Source: Candidatus Zixiibacteriota bacterium (GTDB lineage Bacteria > Zixibacteria > MSB-5A5 > GN15 > JAAZOE01). Taken from it: a stretch of 64,000 nt of DNA. Positions 999 to 64,000 of this stretch are shown piece by piece (the first letter of the stretch is position 1; every line of letters starts with the position of its first letter). Below the pieces are notes generated by a model, which had not been told where the DNA came from, searched no databases, and worked only from the letters and a program-made list of their open reading frames with translations. The translations under genes were made by a program, and so were the position numbers. The stretch covers positions 2,198,882 to 2,262,881 of the forward strand of contig JAWLBI010000001.1 of the NCBI GenBank assembly GCA_041394985.1, read 5' to 3'.

Positions 999-1016
999 AA
1001 ACGCCTCCTATACGGC

Positions 1017-1157
1017 ATTCCGAATGAGGCCCGTCTTCGGGCCGATTGAGGAATCTGTTCTTGTCATCCCCTCTGGAGAGGGGTGCCCGAAGGGCGGGGT
1101 GTGTTCTCTTCTTTCTTCCCCTTTTTAGACCAGTCCGTACCCCACCCACTGGGTGGG
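1017..1157. repeat. cluster of four short GC-rich hairpin modules (dispersed repeat family)
   Basis: Hairpins: ggcccg-tctt-cgggcc (1028-1043), cccctc-tgga-gagggg (1068-1083), gccc-gaa-gggc (1085-1095) and cccaccc-act-gggtggg (1141-1157). The first module (1017-1055, cattccgaatgaggcccgtcttcgggccgattgaggaatc) recurs at 52716-52757. Confidence 0.75.
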
Positions 1158-47959: not shown

Positions 47960-48119
47960 TCGGTTAAGCTGATAGAGAGACGAAATCTCTTTGAATAAAA
48001 CGAACCGTTCTCTGATAGATTGGTATGAACCCCGCGGCCACCCGCCGGGTATCATAAACCGTAAGGCAGATATCGTGCCCGGTACGCCGCGGCGGATCCA
48101 CATCTGCCGGGAAGGATTT

Positions 48120-48337
48120 GTAGGTCAAGACCCTTGTGGTCTTGACAAAACCGTAGGGCAGGAGCCCTGCGCTCCTGCCAACGCGCGCAGACATGTCGGT
48201 CAAAACCCTTGTGGTCTTGACAAAACCGTAGGGCAGGTCCCCAATGGGACCTGCCATCGCGCGAAGCGCGAAATCAAAATTGGTAGCCCGACCCTTTAGG
48301 GTCGGGAGAACTGGTACCCCAAGGCTTTAGCCTTGGT
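48120..48337. repeat. array of modular GC-rich hairpins (dnaK-dnaJ spacer, left block)
   Basis: Two tandem composite units (48120-48190, 48195-48275) are built from gtcaagacc/ggtcttgac, ggcaggagc/gctcctgcc or ggcaggtccc/gggacctgcc, and cgcgc-gaa-gcgcg. They are followed by cccgaccc-ttta-gggtcggg and ccaaggc-ttta-gccttgg. Confidence 0.85.
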
Positions 48338-48544: not shown

Positions 48545-48726
48545 TTGTAGGCATACATTGATAAACCGAGGGCATCGCATGCCCGCATCGAAAGGGGCCC
48601 CCGCGGCCCCTTTTGCATGCAAAATTGTAGGTCGAACCCCCTGCGGTCTTGACAAAAGCCGTAGGGCAGGTCCCCAATGGGACCTGCCATCGCGCGGAGC
48701 GCGAAAAAACCACGGCCGTGCCGTGG
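48545..48726. repeat. array of modular GC-rich hairpins (dnaK-dnaJ spacer, right block)
   Basis: gggcat-cgc-atgccc (48570-84), aggggcc-cccgc-ggcccct, a third copy of the composite unit (48627-48705), and ccacgg-ccgtg-ccgtgg (48710-26). Confidence 0.85.
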
Positions 48727-50529: not shown

Positions 50530-51375
50530 ATGTGCGAAAAAGAGAATCAAAAACTGCCCAAATATCTCTATAAATATATAGATTGGGAAAAACTATATCA
50601 TAGAAGGATGTTAGCCGATAGAGAATTCTTCTTTGCAAAACCAAGTTCGTTTAATGATCCCTTTGATTGTTTGTTAGAACCTGATTATTCTCTCCTTAAT
50701 AAAGCACAAATATATAAAATTTATATAAGCCATTTAAAGAGAGATTTACCAATGGCCAATAGGAGTGAGATACGAAAAAGAGCGAAAGATTGGCAAAAAA
50801 AAGGGCTCTGGAAAAACGAAGCGAATAAGAAGCGATCTGAAGAGTGGTCATATAACTATAAAAATGAGAATCTGGGATTATTCTGTCTATCATCAAAACA
50901 TGATGAAATTTTGATGTGGTCTCATTATGCAAAAGGGCATTCTGGTTTATGTTTACAATTCGATACAAAAAGGTTGATGGATGATTTTGAAAATCAGCTA
51001 ATAGTTGAGGGAAAACTCTTTGAAATAATTCCTATTGAATATCACCTTGACATGCCAATAATAAATCCATCGGAGGAAGGAGATGATTATTTTAAAAGAC
51101 TGGTTACAATAAAAGCAAAGAGATGGGAATATGAAAACGAATATAGAATTGTCCTATTGGGTTTTAAAGATAATGATAAGTTTTTAGAAAATAACGAAAG
51201 AATATATAAATATCCATCAAAGGCAATAACAGGCGTCTATTTTGGTTATAATACTACTATAGAGACTGAACAGAGCATCATGGCAATACTGCGAGAAGGA
51301 AGAATCCAACCTTACTTTTTTAAGTCAAAAGTAAAAAAGAATAAATTTGAATTAGAGTTTATACAAATTAATTAA
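50530..51375 (+). CDS. DUF2971 family protein
   Basis: 281 aa. FFAKPSSFNDPFDC and MWSHYAKGHSGLCLQFD match the conserved DUF2971 motifs as I recall them. The gene is visibly much more AT-rich than its neighbours. Confidence 0.6.
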   Translation: MCEKENQKLPKYLYKYIDWEKLYHRRMLADREFFFAKPSSFNDPFDCLLEPDYSLLNKAQIYKIYISHLKRDLPMANRSEIRKRAKDWQKKGLWKNEANKKRSEEWSYNYKNENLGLFCLSSKHDEILMWSHYAKGHSGLCLQFDTKRLMDDFENQLIVEGKLFEIIPIEYHLDMPIINPSEEGDDYFKRLVTIKAKRWEYENEYRIVLLGFKDNDKFLENNERIYKYPSKAITGVYFGYNTTIETEQSIMAILREGRIQPYFFKSKVKKNKFELEFIQIN

Positions 51376-51398
51376 AAAAGTAATATGTCCTGGGATTG

Positions 51399-51435
51399 CC
51401 CGGTGCCCCAACCCTTCTTAAGGATTGGGATGAGA
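51399..51435. repeat. hairpin module cccggtgccccaaccc-ttctta-(a)gg(a)ttggg-atgaga
   Basis: A degenerate copy of the module found at 52650-52685, which has a perfect 8-bp stem cccaaccc/gggttggg. Confidence 0.7.
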
Positions 51436-51536
51436 TGCCATGACACCGAGATGGACAAAGTTATCAGATAAATAATTTATGTCATGGCAAAATGTGATGT
51501 CCTTTTCTTCTTCAAAGCATTTATGTATTCATACAT

Positions 51537-51917
51537 TTGGTCTGGTTTAATAACTTTTATAAAGGTAGCGGTCATTGCGAGGAGCGCGTCCGCCTGGGCG
51601 GACCAGCGACGTCGCAATCTCAGGGTATTATCTTGAAATATGGATATGTATATATACTCACAAACAAGGCACATACTGTTTTATATACCGGCGTAAGTTC
51701 TAATCTTAAAACGCGAATACTTCAGCATAAAGAAAAATATCATTCCGGTTTCACCGGCAAATACAATGTCGATATGCTCGTTTACTATGAATCATGCGAT
51801 GGTATCAGAGGCGCTATTGAACGAGAAAAGCAGATTAAGAATTTCTCACGAGAGAAAAAGGAAGATCTAATCAATTCCATGAATCCTGATTGGAAAGACT
51901 TGTGTAGTGAAATCTGA
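51537..51917 (+). CDS. GIY-YIG nuclease family protein
   Basis: The core YVYILTNKAHTVLYTGVSSNLKTRILQHK...REKQIKNFSREKK is a GIY-YIG (UPF0213-like) domain. The conserved part begins near the TTG at 51633. The upstream 32 codons are read through a hairpin repeat and may not be translated. Confidence 0.8.
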   Translation: MVWFNNFYKGSGHCEERVRLGGPATSQSQGIILKYGYVYILTNKAHTVLYTGVSSNLKTRILQHKEKYHSGFTGKYNVDMLVYYESCDGIRGAIEREKQIKNFSREKKEDLINSMNPDWKDLCSEI

Positions 51918-51958
51918 CACCCTGAGATTGCGACGCCCTAAGAAGGGCTCGCAATGAC
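51571..51958 (+). mobile_element. candidate GIY-YIG selfish element bounded by inverted hairpin modules
   Basis: The left module is at 51571-51625 (gtcattgcgag...cgcaatctcaggg). The right module is at 51921-51958 (cctgagattgcgac...tcgcaatgac). The outer arms are the same sequence in opposite orientation, and a truncated second copy lies 1 kb away. Confidence 0.35.
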
Positions 51959-51988
51959 ACCGAGTTCGATTAATGCTAGTAATATACA

Positions 51989-52318
51989 TCAAAGCATATC
52001 AGCCATCCACAGGCGGCGGAGCATAATTCCCGCCAGCATCAGCGCCAGCAGCACATTCCAAAACCAGGGGCGCATCCAGAACCGTTTCAAATTATCTTTA
52101 GACTTCTTATTCTTCGCGAGCGTGTACTCAAATCCGGTCAATATCAAAGCGGGGAGGGCCGCCTCGATAGGCGGGACCTCGGACAAGCCGATAACTTTCT
52201 TGAAAAACAGCGCCAACAGGATAACGCTGATCCCGGTCCCCAGGGACATCTGTATATATTCATTGCAAAGAAATTCCCAGACCTTCTTCATCATGCGACC
52301 CCATATGTTCTTACTCAA
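51989..52318 (-). CDS. hypothetical small membrane protein
   Basis: 109 aa with three hydrophobic helices (GISVILLALFF, ALPALILTGF, WFWNVLLALMLAGIML). It is preferred over the overlapping + strand ORF, which has junk-like composition. Confidence 0.4.
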   Translation of the reverse strand: MSKNIWGRMMKKVWEFLCNEYIQMSLGTGISVILLALFFKKVIGLSEVPPIEAALPALILTGFEYTLAKNKKSKDNLKRFWMRPWFWNVLLALMLAGIMLRRLWMADML

Positions 52319-52513
52319 TACTACCCCTCAAATCTAAATCAATTCACCGGCTTGGCAAGATAATAAATTTGTAATTCCCGAGAGAGAATATTCGTAGGGC
52401 GGATTCTTCTTATAATCCGCCAATTCATATATCAGGATGGTAGATTTGAAGACAAATCTGCCATACAGTATAATGTGATTCTCTCGTTTTGAAAAAGGTA
52501 TTTATTTCCTCTA

Positions 52514-52648
52514 CGTTTGGTCTGTTTTAACAACTTTTATAGAAGCACCAGTCATTGCGAGGAGCGCGTCCGCCTGGGCGGACCAGCGACGTCGCAATCT
52601 CAGGGTTTTATCTTGAAATACGGATTTGTATATATACTCACAAACAAA
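52514..52648 (+). pseudogene. truncated second copy of the GIY-YIG left end (leader, hairpin module and first ~12 codons)
   Basis: About 135 bp aligns by eye to 51535-51655 with few mismatches, including LKYGFVYILTNK. Homology stops abruptly at about 52649, where another hairpin module begins. Confidence 0.7.
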
Positions 52649-52649
52649 G

Positions 52650-52685
52650 CCCGGTGCCCCAACCCTTCTTAGGGTTGGGATGAGA
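52650..52685. repeat. hairpin module cccggtgccccaaccc-ttctta-gggttggg-atgaga
   Basis: Perfect 8-bp stem. A paralogue lies at 51399-51435. Confidence 0.75.
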
Positions 52686-52715
52686 CTTGGTACCCCTGAA
52701 ATCCCCACGACTCCC

Positions 52716-52757
52716 GTCATTCCGATTGAGACCCGTCTTCGGGCCTACTGAGGAATC
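52716..52757. repeat. hairpin module gtcattccgattgagacccgtcttcgggcctactgaggaatc
   Basis: About 48 nt is alignable with 1017-1064, with roughly six mismatches. Confidence 0.75.
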
Positions 52758-52774
52758 CGCTCTTGCCTCTTCGT

Positions 52775-52927
52775 AGGTCAATCCGCCTAGGCGGATTGTG
52801 GTCTTGACATGCGCGAAGCGCAAACTTCCTTTCCCGTGGTTGGTGTACGTCCCCGTGCATCAACAAAAGACCGGAGGTCAATCCGCCCAGGCGGATTGTG
52901 GTCTTGACATGCGCGAAGCGCAAACTT
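52775..52927. repeat. two 53-bp direct repeats at an exact 100-bp period
   Basis: aggtcaatccgcc(t/c)aggcggattgtggtcttgacatgcgcgaagcgcaaactt occurs at 52775-52827 and 52875-52927 with one mismatch. It is built from the same sub-modules as the dnaK-dnaJ spacer repeats (ggtcttgaca, gcgcgaagcgc). Confidence 0.85.
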
Positions 52928-53323
52928 TCATTTTCACCCTAACTCCGCTCCAGATTCCCACCTCACCTTCTATAGTAGAAAGGATATTCTACCAGTATGT
53001 CCAAAAACGCAAAAACACCGAAAAAAATTTTTCCTATCCGAGGGATAACTCTTTGTCTCCCAACGGCAGTTTATCCACATTTCGGCCCCCGAAACGATAA
53101 CTCCCTACACGACAACGAGATAATAAAATCCGCCCCAAAACAACATTTATGTTACACCACAACGACTTATCCCTCCATCGCAATTGTTAGGAAATCGCAT
53201 ATCGGTACAAGAACAATATCAAATCTGCATATATGTGGCCTGAATTCTCCACAAAATGCAATCCATGGCACAGACGACTCCCCCTCCTTCCCGGGCGTGT
53301 TGAAAAACCTATTACAAGCACGA

Positions 53324-53362
53324 GTCATTGCGAGCCCTTCTTAGGGCGTCGCAATCTCAGGA
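53324..53362. repeat. hairpin module gtcattgcgagcccttcttagggcgtcgcaatctcagga
   Basis: Identical over 39 nt to 63534-63572 and the reverse complement of 51921-51958. Confidence 0.85.
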
Positions 53363-53495
53363 TATTTGCGACAAGCACTTGCGATTGATTTTTGCCTGTG
53401 TTCCTAAGGCGATACCTTTGGGAAATGACTTTTTCAACAAGCCCTCCCAAGGAGGGGGCGGGGGGGTGGTTGATTGATCTTTGTCAAGTATCGCG

Positions 53496-54185
53496 ATGTT
53501 GACTTTCATCGCATGGCCCGGCTGGGTTCCCGCCATACATGGATTGTTGGTGCACGAGGACGTACACGGACACAAAATAATTCTATTTGCACATCACTCA
53601 CCACACTCGTACCATACCGCCATGGACGATTCACCGATTCTCATCAACACGACCAACGATGCGTTCTTCCTCGATATCTACCGCCCGAAGAACCATCCGC
53701 TCCGAGCCGGACACGAGCACTCGCAACTCATCGATATCCTCCGCGAGAAGCGGGCCGAGGAGGTCATCAAACGATTCGCCGATGTCCTCAAGCCGTACCT
53801 GACGACGGGAATCTGTGTCTCGGCTGTGCCGCCGGCCGTAGCCGTCACACACAAGACGGGGATACAACTCGTCGCCAAGTTGCTGGCGTCGGGCAAGCGC
53901 ATCGATGCGACCGATTGCCTCGTGCGAATGAAGCGCGTTCCGACCGCGGCAGAGACGGCTCACCGCACGGAGCAGACGCATCTTGATTCCATCACGGTCC
54001 GCCGCCCCGAATTAATTCGCGATTTTCGATTTTTACTGCTTGATGATATCTATCACACCGGCACGAGCCTCAACGCCTGCAGAAAACTCCTGCTCGATGC
54101 CGGGGCAAGACAGGTTCGTATTTTAGTCCTCGGCCGCACCTGGCGCGATGAGGAATTACCGGATAGGGGATGGTTGAAAGTTTGA
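53496..54185 (+). CDS. ComF-like phosphoribosyltransferase-domain protein
   Basis: The C-terminal PRPP-binding loop FLLLDDIYHTGTSLNACRKLLLDAGARQVRILVLGRT is present. There is no N-terminal zinc finger. The start is uncertain (ATG 53496 or 53622; the ORF track uses TTG 53481). Confidence 0.55.
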   Translation: MLTFIAWPGWVPAIHGLLVHEDVHGHKIILFAHHSPHSYHTAMDDSPILINTTNDAFFLDIYRPKNHPLRAGHEHSQLIDILREKRAEEVIKRFADVLKPYLTTGICVSAVPPAVAVTHKTGIQLVAKLLASGKRIDATDCLVRMKRVPTAAETAHRTEQTHLDSITVRRPELIRDFRFLLLDDIYHTGTSLNACRKLLLDAGARQVRILVLGRTWRDEELPDRGWLKV

Positions 54186-61957: not shown

Positions 61958-63481
61958 ATGCCGGAATTATTCAAAAAAATATTAGTCGCCAACAGGGGAG
62001 AAATCGCGGTGCGTGTGCTGCGAGCCTGCCGCACGCTGGGCATCAAGACCGTGGCCGTCTATTCGACCGCCGACCGCTTCGCCGTCCACACCGTCATGGC
62101 CGATGAGTGCTATGAAATCGGACCGCCCCCGCCGCTGGAATCATATCTGTGTATCGAAAAAATCATCGATGCCGCCAAGAAGTCCGGTGCCGATGCCATC
62201 CATCCGGGATATGGATTCCTCGCCGAAAACGCGGCCTTTTCACAAGCGTGTATCGATTCCGGGATTGCCTTCATCGGGCCGTCGCCGCATTCGATCAAGC
62301 TCATGGGCAACAAGGTCGAATCGCGCAAGAAAATGGTCAATGCCGGAGTGCCGCTGATTCCGGGGATGAAAGGCGCAGGCAATAGTATCGAGGAATTCAA
62401 AAAAGTCGCCGATGAAGCCGGCTATCCCGTCCTCATCAAGGCCGCCGCAGGCGGCGGTGGTAAGGGCATGCGAGTCGTCCACAAGGCCGAAGACCTCGCT
62501 GATGCCGTCGACGGCGCCAAGCGCGAGGCGAAATCCGCCTTTGGTGATGATACCGTCTATCTGGAAAAATATATCATCGATCCGCGGCATATCGAATTTC
62601 AGGTCTTTGCCGATTCGTATGGCAATGCCGTGCATGTGTTCGAGCGGGAATGCTCGATTCAGCGCAGACATCAGAAAATCATCGAGGAAACGCCATCGGT
62701 CGCGGTTACTCCGGAGCTCCGCAAAAAGATGGGCGAGGCCGCCGTGGCCGTCGTCAAGGCCGCCGATTATGTCAATGCCGGGACGGTCGAATTCCTGCTC
62801 GATAAAGCGGGCAAGTTCTATTTCCTCGAAATGAACACCCGAATTCAGGTCGAACATCCCATCACCGAGGAAGTCGCCGGGGTGGATCTGGTCGCCGAGC
62901 AAATTCGTGTCGCATCGGGATTCCCGCTGTCCGAGCAGTTCAAAAATCTCACTCAGCGCGGTCATGCGATTGAGGCTCGAATCTATGCCGAGGATGCCGG
63001 TAATAATTTCATGCCGTCAATCGGTAAGATTCTGCTCTATCAGGAACCGACCGGACCGGGTGTACGAATCGATTCCGGCGTGCGGCAAAACTCCGAGGTC
63101 GGTATCGACTATGATCCGATCATGGCCAAGTTGATTTGCTGGGGCGAAGACCGCGATGCGGCCCGCGCCCGCCTGATTCGCGCGCTGTCCGAATACAAGA
63201 TTCTCGGCCTGCGCCATTCGATAAAATATCTGTCCGATATCGTCGCGCACGAGAAATTCGCGGCGGGCGAAACCTACACCGATTTCATTCCCCGGAATTT
63301 CGCCGACTGGTCGGATGGTGTCGAGGATAATCTGGAACCGGCACTGGCCGCTGCTGCAGTAGCGACTGCATCGGCCAAACCGGCCGCGGCCGCATCCGGC
63401 AATGGGCATATGATCGGTCGCAGTGAATACAACCCCTGGAAAACAATCGGCACCTGGCGCATCGGACAGAAAATCGGATAG
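61958..63481 (+). CDS. mccA: biotin carboxylase component of the acyl-CoA carboxylase alpha subunit (BC domain only)
   Basis: 507 aa. ILVANRGEIAVR, GYGFLAEN, KAAAGGGGKGMR and EMNTRIQVEHPITE. It stops after the BC domain, with no biotinyl domain in this ORF. Confidence 0.88.
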   Translation: MPELFKKILVANRGEIAVRVLRACRTLGIKTVAVYSTADRFAVHTVMADECYEIGPPPPLESYLCIEKIIDAAKKSGADAIHPGYGFLAENAAFSQACIDSGIAFIGPSPHSIKLMGNKVESRKKMVNAGVPLIPGMKGAGNSIEEFKKVADEAGYPVLIKAAAGGGGKGMRVVHKAEDLADAVDGAKREAKSAFGDDTVYLEKYIIDPRHIEFQVFADSYGNAVHVFERECSIQRRHQKIIEETPSVAVTPELRKKMGEAAVAVVKAADYVNAGTVEFLLDKAGKFYFLEMNTRIQVEHPITEEVAGVDLVAEQIRVASGFPLSEQFKNLTQRGHAIEARIYAEDAGNNFMPSIGKILLYQEPTGPGVRIDSGVRQNSEVGIDYDPIMAKLICWGEDRDAARARLIRALSEYKILGLRHSIKYLSDIVAHEKFAAGETYTDFIPRNFADWSDGVEDNLEPALAAAAVATASAKPAAAASGNGHMIGRSEYNPWKTIGTWRIGQKIG

Positions 63482-63533: not shown

Positions 63534-63572
63534 GTCATTGCGAGCCCTTCTTAGGGCGTCGCAATCTCAGGA
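63534..63572. repeat. hairpin module gtcattgcgagcccttcttagggcgtcgcaatctcagga
   Basis: Identical to 53324-53362. It lies in the 123-bp gap between the BC ORF and the BT/BCCP ORF. Confidence 0.85.
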
Positions 63573-63604: not shown

Positions 63605-64000
63605 ATGAACTTCGAATTTATACACAACGGCGAACTCAAGACTGTCGACCTTAAGGACAACCGCATCGCGACCTTTCCCGATGGCAACAAAACCATCGAA
63701 ATAGATCGCACCCCCGACGGCCGGTATTTCATGAAGACGGGCGAGGGGACGACCGAGGTGTTCGTTGTCAGCAACGGCAAGACGACTTTTGTCGATGTCA
63801 ACAGCGTCCTCTATGAATTCACCCAGCCGACCCAAGATGGCGCGGCCGGTGGCGGCGGGGCGGGAGATTTATCCGATCCATCCAAAGTGTTCGCTCCCAT
63901 GCCGGGCAAAGTCGTCAAAGTGATGGTCTCGGTGGGCGATGAAGTGGCCGAAAAGGCGCAGCTCATCATTGTCGAGGCGATGAAGATGGAGCATGTCTGT
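63605..64000 (+). CDS. BT plus biotinyl (BCCP) portion of the carboxylase alpha subunit, 3'-truncated by the window end
   Basis: ATG sits 7 nt after ggag and the frame is open to the window end. It ends ...APMPGKVVKVMVSVGDEVAEKAQLIIVEAMKMEHV, which contains the biotinylation motif EAMKM. It is not in the ORF track because there is no stop within the window. Confidence 0.8.
   Translation, partial: MNFEFIHNGELKTVDLKDNRIATFPDGNKTIEIDRTPDGRYFMKTGEGTTEVFVVSNGKTTFVDVNSVLYEFTQPTQDGAAGGGGAGDLSDPSKVFAPMPGKVVKVMVSVGDEVAEKAQLIIVEAMKMEHVC

Follow-up and report, generated by a model that had tools for sequence, protein, structure and literature searches.

A GIY-YIG nuclease gene between inverted hairpin repeats in a Zixibacteria genome as a probable member of the Ssn/SRM system

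Ssn proteins are stand-alone GIY-YIG endonucleases whose genes are often accompanied by short hairpin repeats called SRMs (Chenal et al., Nat Commun 2025, PMC11893778). Here, we analyzed a 64-kb stretch of a Candidatus Zixiibacteriota genome (the window), in which a gene for a 94-amino-acid (aa) GIY-YIG nuclease lies between two hairpin modules in inverted orientation. A preliminary description of this stretch had proposed that the gene and its modules form an uncharacterized mobile element. Our results make it very probable that the locus is an Ssn-family endonuclease gene flanked by its cognate SRMs. Since the same NTS/SRM-ssnA-NTS/SRM architecture has been described and biochemically tested (PMC11893778), "uncharacterized" no longer applies, and the locus is an ordinary further example of a recently characterized system.

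The SsnA protein of Neisseria meningitidis (Nm SsnA, NMV_0044) is a single-domain GIY-YIG protein of 94 aa (CDD cd10448) that binds the hairpin repeat NTS (CGTCATTCCCGCGMAVGCGGGAATCYRG) solely as single-stranded DNA (ssDNA), on one strand only, and cleaves a few nucleotides (nt) upstream of the repeat (PMC11893778). Cleavage depends on the 3 nt that precede the palindrome, and binding on the C immediately following it. Cutting is abolished by the substitutions Y6A, Y17A and E64A, and the protein does not bind RNA. [quoted passage not shown] Homology to Nm SsnA was judged by tblastn at E<1e-10. SRMs occur near 71% of Ssn homologues and on both sides in 42%, while 81% of the genomes having more than 200 SRMs encode an Ssn. 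The sole function tested is in Neisseria, where SsnA restricts incoming transforming ssDNA bearing NTS. The authors also discussed the appearance of the NTS-ssnA-NTS layout, which is like that of insertion sequences (IS) and of repetitive extragenic palindromes (REPs) with their REP-associated tyrosine transposases (RAYTs) (PMC11893778).

Two kinds of REP are relevant here. CGTC-tagged REPs, which include Neisseria dRS3 and Rickettsia RPE-4 and RPE-6, have AT-initiated stems and no associated transposase (Di Nocera et al., BMC Genomics 2013, PMC3733652). In REP/REPIN-RAYT systems, a resident single-copy gene for an HUH/Y1 tyrosine transposase (IS200/IS605-like) lies between inverted hairpin repeats that are also dispersed in the genome. 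In the literature on GIY-YIG/COG2827 and REPIN/RAYT, we found no further prior description, and no follow-up papers on Ssn up to mid-2026.

The nuclease gene and its hairpin modules

The features central to the locus are given below in window coordinates.

51633..51917, + strand: ssn-like gene with TTG start, encoding a 94-aa single-domain GIY-YIG nuclease (N-terminus MKYGYVYILTNK)
51571..51625, + strand: left SRM, long form; exact pattern match, with 7 nt between its end and the start codon
51921..51958, - strand: right SRM, short form, inverted; starts 3 nt past the stop codon; pattern match and fold
53324..53361, + strand: solo short SRM, intergenic (repeat family D8)
63534..63571, + strand: solo short SRM, intergenic, between the end of a 507-aa open reading frame (ORF) at 63481 and an apparent ATG at 63606

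Profile searches showed that the protein is a GIY-YIG domain (PF01541, E=1.2e-14, residues 3-76 covered) without a second domain, as its 94 residues contain no extra DNA-binding domain or linker. It is 100% identical to a 94-aa protein from a Ca. Zixiibacteriota genome (P0001; 4.46-Mb contig) annotated by NCBI as "GIY-YIG nuclease family protein." Five residues (Y7, Y18, R28, H32 and E65) are invariant across 16 homologues, and the 11- and 47-residue spacing of Y7, Y18 and E65 is the same as that of Y6, Y17 and E64 in Nm SsnA. Moreover, the window protein shares 58% identity (E=2e-35) with P0121, a homologue encoded next to a repeat that fits the published SRM search string. We suggest that the existing annotation can be read as an Ssn-type ssDNA endonuclease gene, as judged from its sequence, with the nearby hairpins as cognate repeats rather than as an unknown mobile element.

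An AlphaFold model of the protein (predicted local distance difference test score, pLDDT, 90) has the GIY-YIG fold. Its nearest fold in the PDB is 1ZG2 (UPF0213, BH0048, E=4e-5), followed by the Slx1 nuclease domain and the UvrC N-terminal domain. Although UPF0213/YhbQ-type proteins and Slx1 are thus the nearest solved folds, they are just 15-28% identical in sequence to the window protein, and Slx1 differs in carrying a RING domain, having a partner, Slx4, and cutting branched double-stranded DNA (dsDNA). To our knowledge, no cognate hairpin repeats have been reported for the UPF0213/YhbQ or Slx1 families. A sequence search of the PDB with the window protein yielded no match at E≤0.01 and no solved Ssn structure, and NCBIfam and PADLOC gave no family-level name for the nuclease.

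The GIY-YIG domain, together with a weak, sub-threshold match to TIGR01453, a group I intron endonuclease family (16 bits versus a cut-off of 56), could also suggest a classical homing endonuclease gene of the I-TevI type, either free-standing or intron-borne, that cleaves the empty dsDNA allele. However, I-TevI-type enzymes tether the nuclease to a C-terminal DNA-binding domain and occur in an intron or phage context, whereas the window gene is chromosomal, lacks any intron or intein context and encodes 94 aa with no linker or DNA-binding domain. Its relatives are rare in viral contigs, and none of the structural neighbors (UPF0213, Slx1, UvrC-N) is a homing enzyme. A homing endonuclease is exceedingly improbable here, as the single-domain architecture and the chromosomal context effectively exclude it.

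The modules are a specific feature of the window. The pattern GTCATTGCGA-N(4-34)-TCGCAATCTCAGG has exactly five matches, at 51571(+), 51921(-), 52551(+), 53324(+) and 63534(+), with 0 expected from 100 shuffles. The left module reads GTC-ATTGCGA-GGAGC-[GTCCGC ctgg GCGGAC]-..GCGAC-G-TCGCAAT-C-TCAGGG, and the right module, on the minus strand, reads GTCATTGCGA-GCCC-TTCTTA-GGGC-G-TCGCAATCTCAGG. Short modules are strong bulged hairpins (DNA z-scores -4.6 to -5.3; -4.6 to -5.2 for the right module) in which a 7-bp stem is followed by a bulge, 4 bp more and a 6-nt loop (TTCTTA); the long form consists of three helices. All five copies contain GTC-ATTGCGA...TCGCAAT-C, that is, an unpaired GTC, an AT-starting palindrome and a C directly after it. 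The 4-nt tag is AGTC in two copies and GGTC, TGTC and CGTC in one copy each, with CTC(AGG) as the tail. Thus, the arrangement recorded in the preliminary description, a GIY-YIG gene between inverted hairpin modules, was recovered in every feature. The solo modules at 53324 and 63534, which it had considered related to the gene-flanking ones, are exact pattern matches and members of the same repeat family.

Comparison with the Ssn/SRM system revealed likeness in protein, layout and repeat. Both have a 94-aa stand-alone GIY-YIG protein with identical Tyr/Tyr/Glu spacing; in both, the gene lies between oriented hairpin repeats, inverted, on both sides; and in both, the repeat consists of an unpaired GTC, an AT-starting palindrome and a C, with solo copies in intergenic regions. 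They differ in the stem, which is ATTGCGA in the window versus ATTCCCGCG in NTS, and in the repeats themselves, which are 38 and 54 nt long and bulged or three-helix nested versus 28 nt. The host is also different, a member of the Zixibacteriota.

CGTC-tagged REPs are likewise short intergenic palindromes; one end bears an unpaired (N)GTC tag, the stem starts with AT, and the unpaired tail is short. They often occur as head-to-head pairs, and no transposase is associated (PMC3733652). In contrast to the window modules, which have 7 bp, a bulge and 4 bp with a 6-nt loop or a nested hairpin, and a CTCAGG tail, in these REPs the stem is 8-9 bp, the loop 4-5 nt and the tail CCA. The base preceding GTC also varies in the window (G, A, T or C).

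We considered whether the modules act at the RNA level, with the upstream module controlling translation as part of the 5′ untranslated region, the downstream module serving as a terminator or mRNA stabilizer, and the solo copies doing likewise. The left module reaches to 7 nt from the start codon, a position expected for a ribosome-binding site, and the right module follows the stop codon; both are stable when folded as RNA, and covariation cannot separate RNA from ssDNA. However, no T run follows either hairpin. In a promoter/terminator scan, which gave nothing beyond shuffle expectation, the SRMs were not terminator-like. As the modules are inverted, an mRNA would contain the GTC strand of the upstream module but the complementary strand of the downstream one, leaving the conserved unpaired GTC and C without a common RNA reading. 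Rfam detected no RNA family on the modules, either at gathering thresholds across the whole window or at E≤1 over 51300-53500, and Nm SsnA does not bind RNA (PMC11893778). We consider cis-regulation by RNA very unlikely.

Recurrence in other bacteria and selection on the hairpins

To compare the layout with that of relatives, we used 80 loci from one-genome-per-species contigs and scored the 78 loci with sufficient flank. SRMs were scored by structure (GTC, a 5-nt stem, at most ~65 nt, the reverse-complement stem, and C). Since a perfect stem of 6-7 nt was too strict for other phyla, the 5-nt stem was used with a measured background, which was ~3% per strand in control windows 0.6-2.4 kb away. 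A + SRM was present within 150 nt upstream of 39 of the 78 relatives and a - SRM within 120 nt downstream of 40. At least one SRM in either orientation accompanied 59 genes, and 30 had SRMs on both sides (upstream +, downstream -). Of the downstream SRMs, 12 of 40 begin within 3 nt of the stop codon.

The repeats themselves are also conserved. Across the 80 loci, upstream flanks carry GTCATTGCGAGG...GAAGCAATCTC, and the stop codon often runs into GAGATTGCTTCG...CTCGCAATGAC. Classified by stem, the 39 upstream SRMs are ATTGC in 27 cases, ATTCT in three and ATTCC in two, with seven other classes found once each. When SRMs are present on both sides, the stem class is usually the same (24/30). Homologues at 60-70% identity exist in very many phyla, and the gene with inverted modules recurs in Flavobacteria, candidate phyla radiation (CPR) bacteria, Chloroflexota, WOR-3 and Kuenenia. 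A second Zixibacteria contig (L001), with 73% aa identity and other neighbors, has the same order of module, gene and inverted module. A scan for the exact Zixi-type module detected 12 metagenome contigs, four of which have an ssn-like gene in the SRM(+)-gene-SRM(-) layout, while the others contain solo copies or mixed clusters; the co-localization of module and GIY-YIG gene that the preliminary description had suggested checking is thus found. We conclude that the gene and its inverted hairpin modules are a genuine unit that is conserved across bacteria.

For several homologues (P0039, P0086, P0091, P0096 and P0103), public gene calls begin too early and translate the upstream SRM, giving rise to N-terminal pseudo-peptides such as "RHCEERSDEAI," "VIARS...DEAI" and "SLRGAKRRGNL." SRMs also form larger clusters. 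One metagenome contig (L092, 1448-8944) contains at least nine SRMs of four stem classes in ~7.5 kb with no ssn gene, and in a viral contig (L095, 1887-2495) ssn lies between arrays of alternating + and - SRMs, resembling bacterial interspersed mosaic element (BIME)-like clusters.

The metagenome modules of ~49 nt have a three-helix nested design in common with the left module of the window. In an alignment of 12 sequences (the left module and 11 metagenome copies), 88% of cells were paired, compared to 27-41% when partners were slid, and compensatory double changes were present at seven pairs. The outer stem was a selection criterion and so carries no weight in this test; the inner helix, which had no part in sequence selection, was 98% paired. 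These data indicate that the hairpin structure is under selection.

Together, the Ssn/SRM reading is favored because of the length of the protein, its Tyr/Tyr/Glu spacing and fold, the logic of the modules, the layout in relatives, the compensatory changes and the link through P0121. Several observations weigh against it. A homologue search started from the protein of one related locus (L074) returned no Neisseria protein among the matches listed, and the assignment to the Ssn family is based on length, residue spacing, layout and the P0121 link. The biochemically tested pairs of Ssn and repeat belong to stem classes other than ATTGC, and neither the CTCAGG tail nor the long nested form of the window resembles the 28-nt NTS. 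In addition, the published SRM string (HGTCWYN0-2YYVSBRHN0-5WNVSBRGN0-2RNCYNB) has 0 matches in the window and occurs near just one of the 78 related genes.

This string was derived from 29 genomes and covers 26-35 nt only; it is an operational search tool, not a biochemical definition. Our implementation recognized both the canonical NTS and the repeat beside L074, which served as positive controls, and no module type of the window fits. Thus, the published pattern covers neither the ATTGC-stem class nor the long nested form, nor the ATTCC copy at 52716 (below). As the 2025 pattern misses the ATTGC class, which accompanies most relatives (27/39), repeats outside Proteobacteria have probably been undercounted in the published census. 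While the Ssn/SRM architecture and its biochemistry were already known, the ATTGC-stem class and the 49-nt three-helix form are modestly new, as is the contrast of dynamic repeats around a stable gene (below).

By homology with Neisseria SsnA and the three other tested homologues, the window protein would bind its hairpin solely as ssDNA and solely on the GTC-bearing strand, and would cut a few nt 5′ of the motif. For the left SRM, the predicted cut would fall at ~51565-51568 of the top strand; for the right SRM, it would be on the bottom strand, immediately to the right of 51958. Further targets could be the solo SRMs at 53324 and 63534 and possibly also the copy of the ATTCC class at 52716; these would mark regions for cleavage whenever uptake, conjugation, replication or repair renders them single-stranded. 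The role of the system might lie in ssDNA restriction, recombination control or RAYT-like spreading of repeats. Each further Ssn/SRM pair is also a candidate sequence-specific reagent for cutting ssDNA.

A resident gene and changing repeats

The preliminary description had interpreted the locus as a small cassette that had duplicated locally, based on a second, partial copy about 1 kb away. The features concerned are as follows.

51490..51570, + strand: leader common to the intact and partial copies, presumed promoter/5′ region; aligned with 52471-52550
52471..52650, + strand: 5′ fragment of a second ssn locus, consisting of leader, identical long SRM (52551-52604) and codons 1-12 (52613-52648)

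The repetition of the leader, left module and ~12 codons is evident, with 91% identity between 51532-51670 and 52512-52650. However, the copy, which had been called 5′-truncated, is actually a 5′ fragment, as it keeps these elements and is truncated at its 3′ side. Apart from the intact gene, this fragment was all that tblastn detected in the window. Homology between the copies begins ~80 nt 5′ of the left module (~51490/52471) and stops inside the gene. Because it begins outside the module, the duplicated unit is not delimited by hairpin modules. By direct reading, the fragment is fused after ssn codon 12, via a 2-nt microhomology, to the inner hairpin of a further module (B). This hairpin (52650-52685) is also found upstream of the intact gene at 51399 (90% over 31 nt, family D9), as the preliminary description had reported. 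The fragment lies in an intergenic stretch of ~1.1 kb that is dense in several repeat families, and we read it (~52471-52650) as a rearrangement scar in this stretch, not as a transposition product. No significant sigma-70 match was detected in the leader of the intact copy.

We examined gene mobility by comparing genes and flanks all-versus-all among the related loci. For all gene pairs at 81-90% nt identity, the flanks were homologous with similar divergence. Both flanks were homologous among four Flavobacterium loci, between two Chryseobacterium loci, and in the pairs L054/L055, L049/L057 and L097/L098; for L050/L069, homology was confined to the left flank. No near-identical gene was found in unrelated flanks. 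A second copy within ±3 kb was present at one of 81 loci (L045), and the other 80 were single-copy. Six of the 81 loci (L027, L030, L031, L041, L051 and L077) have the ssn match interrupted by a premature in-frame stop and are likely pseudogenes. For five of these (L027, L030, L031, L041 and L077), tandem partial ssn copies after intact genes had been a candidate interpretation, which was rejected in favor of the premature stops. Among 2.9 million viral contigs, there were six relatives.

The repeats behave differently. In orthologous Flavobacterium loci, single SRMs show clean presence or absence, both upstream and downstream of the gene. One locus (L016) is without the SRM(-) that sits just before the ATG in three others (L006, L007 and L023), and two of these (L007 and L023) have one or two additional SRMs downstream of the syntenic ssn; gain and loss of SRMs are indistinguishable in these comparisons. 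No target-site duplication was seen. An apparent one (ATGA) at the extra upstream SRM was rejected, as the left TGA is the conserved tail of the SRM and the right is the start codon. Thus, just the repeats, and not the gene, differ by presence or absence at orthologous sites. Our data point to ssn as a resident gene that is inherited vertically within genera and that relocates or is transferred only on long timescales. This contrast between a stable gene and repeats that are gained or lost suggests where to seek the biological role of the system.

These comparisons bear on the idea, also raised by Chenal et al. (PMC11893778), that SRM-ssn-SRM is an active, selfish, autonomously copying element similar to a transposon. 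In this scenario, the GIY-YIG protein would be the mobilizing enzyme, and the solo modules would be footprints or non-autonomous derivatives. In favor of this idea, inverted hairpins at both ends give the locus an IS-like layout, in 12 of 40 loci no more than 3 nt separate the stop codon from the right repeat, and the gene occupies a low-GC islet with a partial copy 1 kb away. Further, the two Zixibacteria loci (window and L001) have different neighbors, one Chryseobacterium gene (L011) is at another locus than two others (L004 and L015), six of 81 loci have premature stops, and SRMs vary by presence at orthologous sites. However, the homologous, similarly diverged flanks of close pairs (left side only for L050/L069) and the lack of near-identical genes in unrelated flanks do not fit an active element. 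Nor do the one intact copy in the window and single copies at 80 of 81 loci, a local duplicate that begins ~80 nt outside the left SRM and ends within the gene, the lack of target-site duplications, the mere six viral relatives, or a nuclease alone without known strand-transfer activity. We regard a self-copying cassette as improbable. The term "mobile cassette" was at best half right: the unit is genuine and its repeats vary at orthologous sites, but active mobility of the gene is unsupported by the flank comparison. Within genera, the gene was found at a fixed locus.

A stable gene with dynamic repeats fits better with an analogy to RAYTs and REPINs. The likeness includes a single-copy resident gene between inverted hairpin repeats, the same repeats dispersed in the genome, an enzyme that acts on ssDNA hairpins, and vertical inheritance of the gene within genera while repeats turn over. 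It is architectural only, as a hydrolytic GIY-YIG nuclease is unrelated in fold and chemistry to an HUH/Y1 tyrosine transposase, the window tag is GTC and not GTAG, and no strand-transfer activity is known.

Taken further, the analogy would make ssn a domesticated, single-copy nuclease gene that spreads or maintains the SRMs of its genome. The vertical gene with SRM turnover at orthologous loci, the inverted repeats that flank it as they do RAYTs, and the mixed-class SRM cluster without a gene (L092) are consistent with this proposal, as are the absence of another transposase associated with CGTC REPs (PMC3733652) and the presence of an Ssn in 81% of SRM-rich genomes (PMC11893778). On the other hand, transposition or copying is not a known activity of any Ssn, the indistinguishable gain and loss of SRMs has to be set beside the ease with which hairpin repeats are lost by replication slippage, and the only tested function, in Neisseria, is restriction of incoming ssDNA. 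Such a REP-mobilizing role is possible, but we hold it only tentatively. Broader still, and more doubtful, is the speculation that Ssn nucleases, as GIY-YIG equivalents of RAYTs, are the missing enzymes by which the CGTC-tagged REP superfamily is mobilized. In that case, the ATTGC-stem class would be the dominant, largely uncounted branch of this system across non-proteobacterial phyla, and a resident gene would spread and maintain the hairpins by ssDNA nicking and host repair or replication.

Other repeats and neighboring genes

Two further hairpins in the window are related to SRMs.

52716..52757, + strand: second-class SRM, GTC-ATTCC...GGAAT-C, with a Neisseria NTS-like stem
51389..51444, - strand: module B1 with flanks (direct reading, unscored); reverse complement GTC-ATGGC...GCAAT-C-CCAGG, with one outer-stem mismatch

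A degenerate relative of the ATTCC-class SRM at 52716 is present at 1013-1063 (+); it is 86% identical, with GGC replacing GTC. No second ssn gene is present in the window to pair with this class, and its partner enzyme, if there is one, would be elsewhere in the genome. Module B1 with its flanks is probably a degenerate long SRM, and an 11-nt sequence, ATGACACCGAG, is common to it (51440-51450) and to the outer flank of the right SRM (51954-51964).

The ssn-like gene and its upstream neighbor lie in a stretch of low GC content (29-41%, versus 55-60% in the flanks). Directly 5′ of ssn, after dnaJ and within the same islet (29-33% GC), is a gene for a DUF2971 protein (50530-51375, +) that matches the PADLOC candidate anti-phage defense family PDC-S31 (E=9e-62). 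Because of this match, the predicted ssDNA nuclease adjoins a candidate defense gene. Convergent with ssn, a 109-aa ORF (51989-52318, -) had no match in Pfam, NCBIfam or PADLOC; it is hydrophobic by eye and may encode a small membrane protein or be no gene. Just downstream of the solo SRM at 53324, a phosphoribosyltransferase-domain gene (53481-54185, +) has weak similarity to ComF/GntX (25 bits versus a cut-off of 234). This neighbor is of note solely since Ssn modulates transformation in Neisseria, and may well be a coincidence. Finally, nested hairpin families starting with (C/T)GTAGG, which are GTAG-tagged, REP-like and distinct from SRMs, are present at 48119-48273, 48626-48706, 52772-52832 and 52872-52932.

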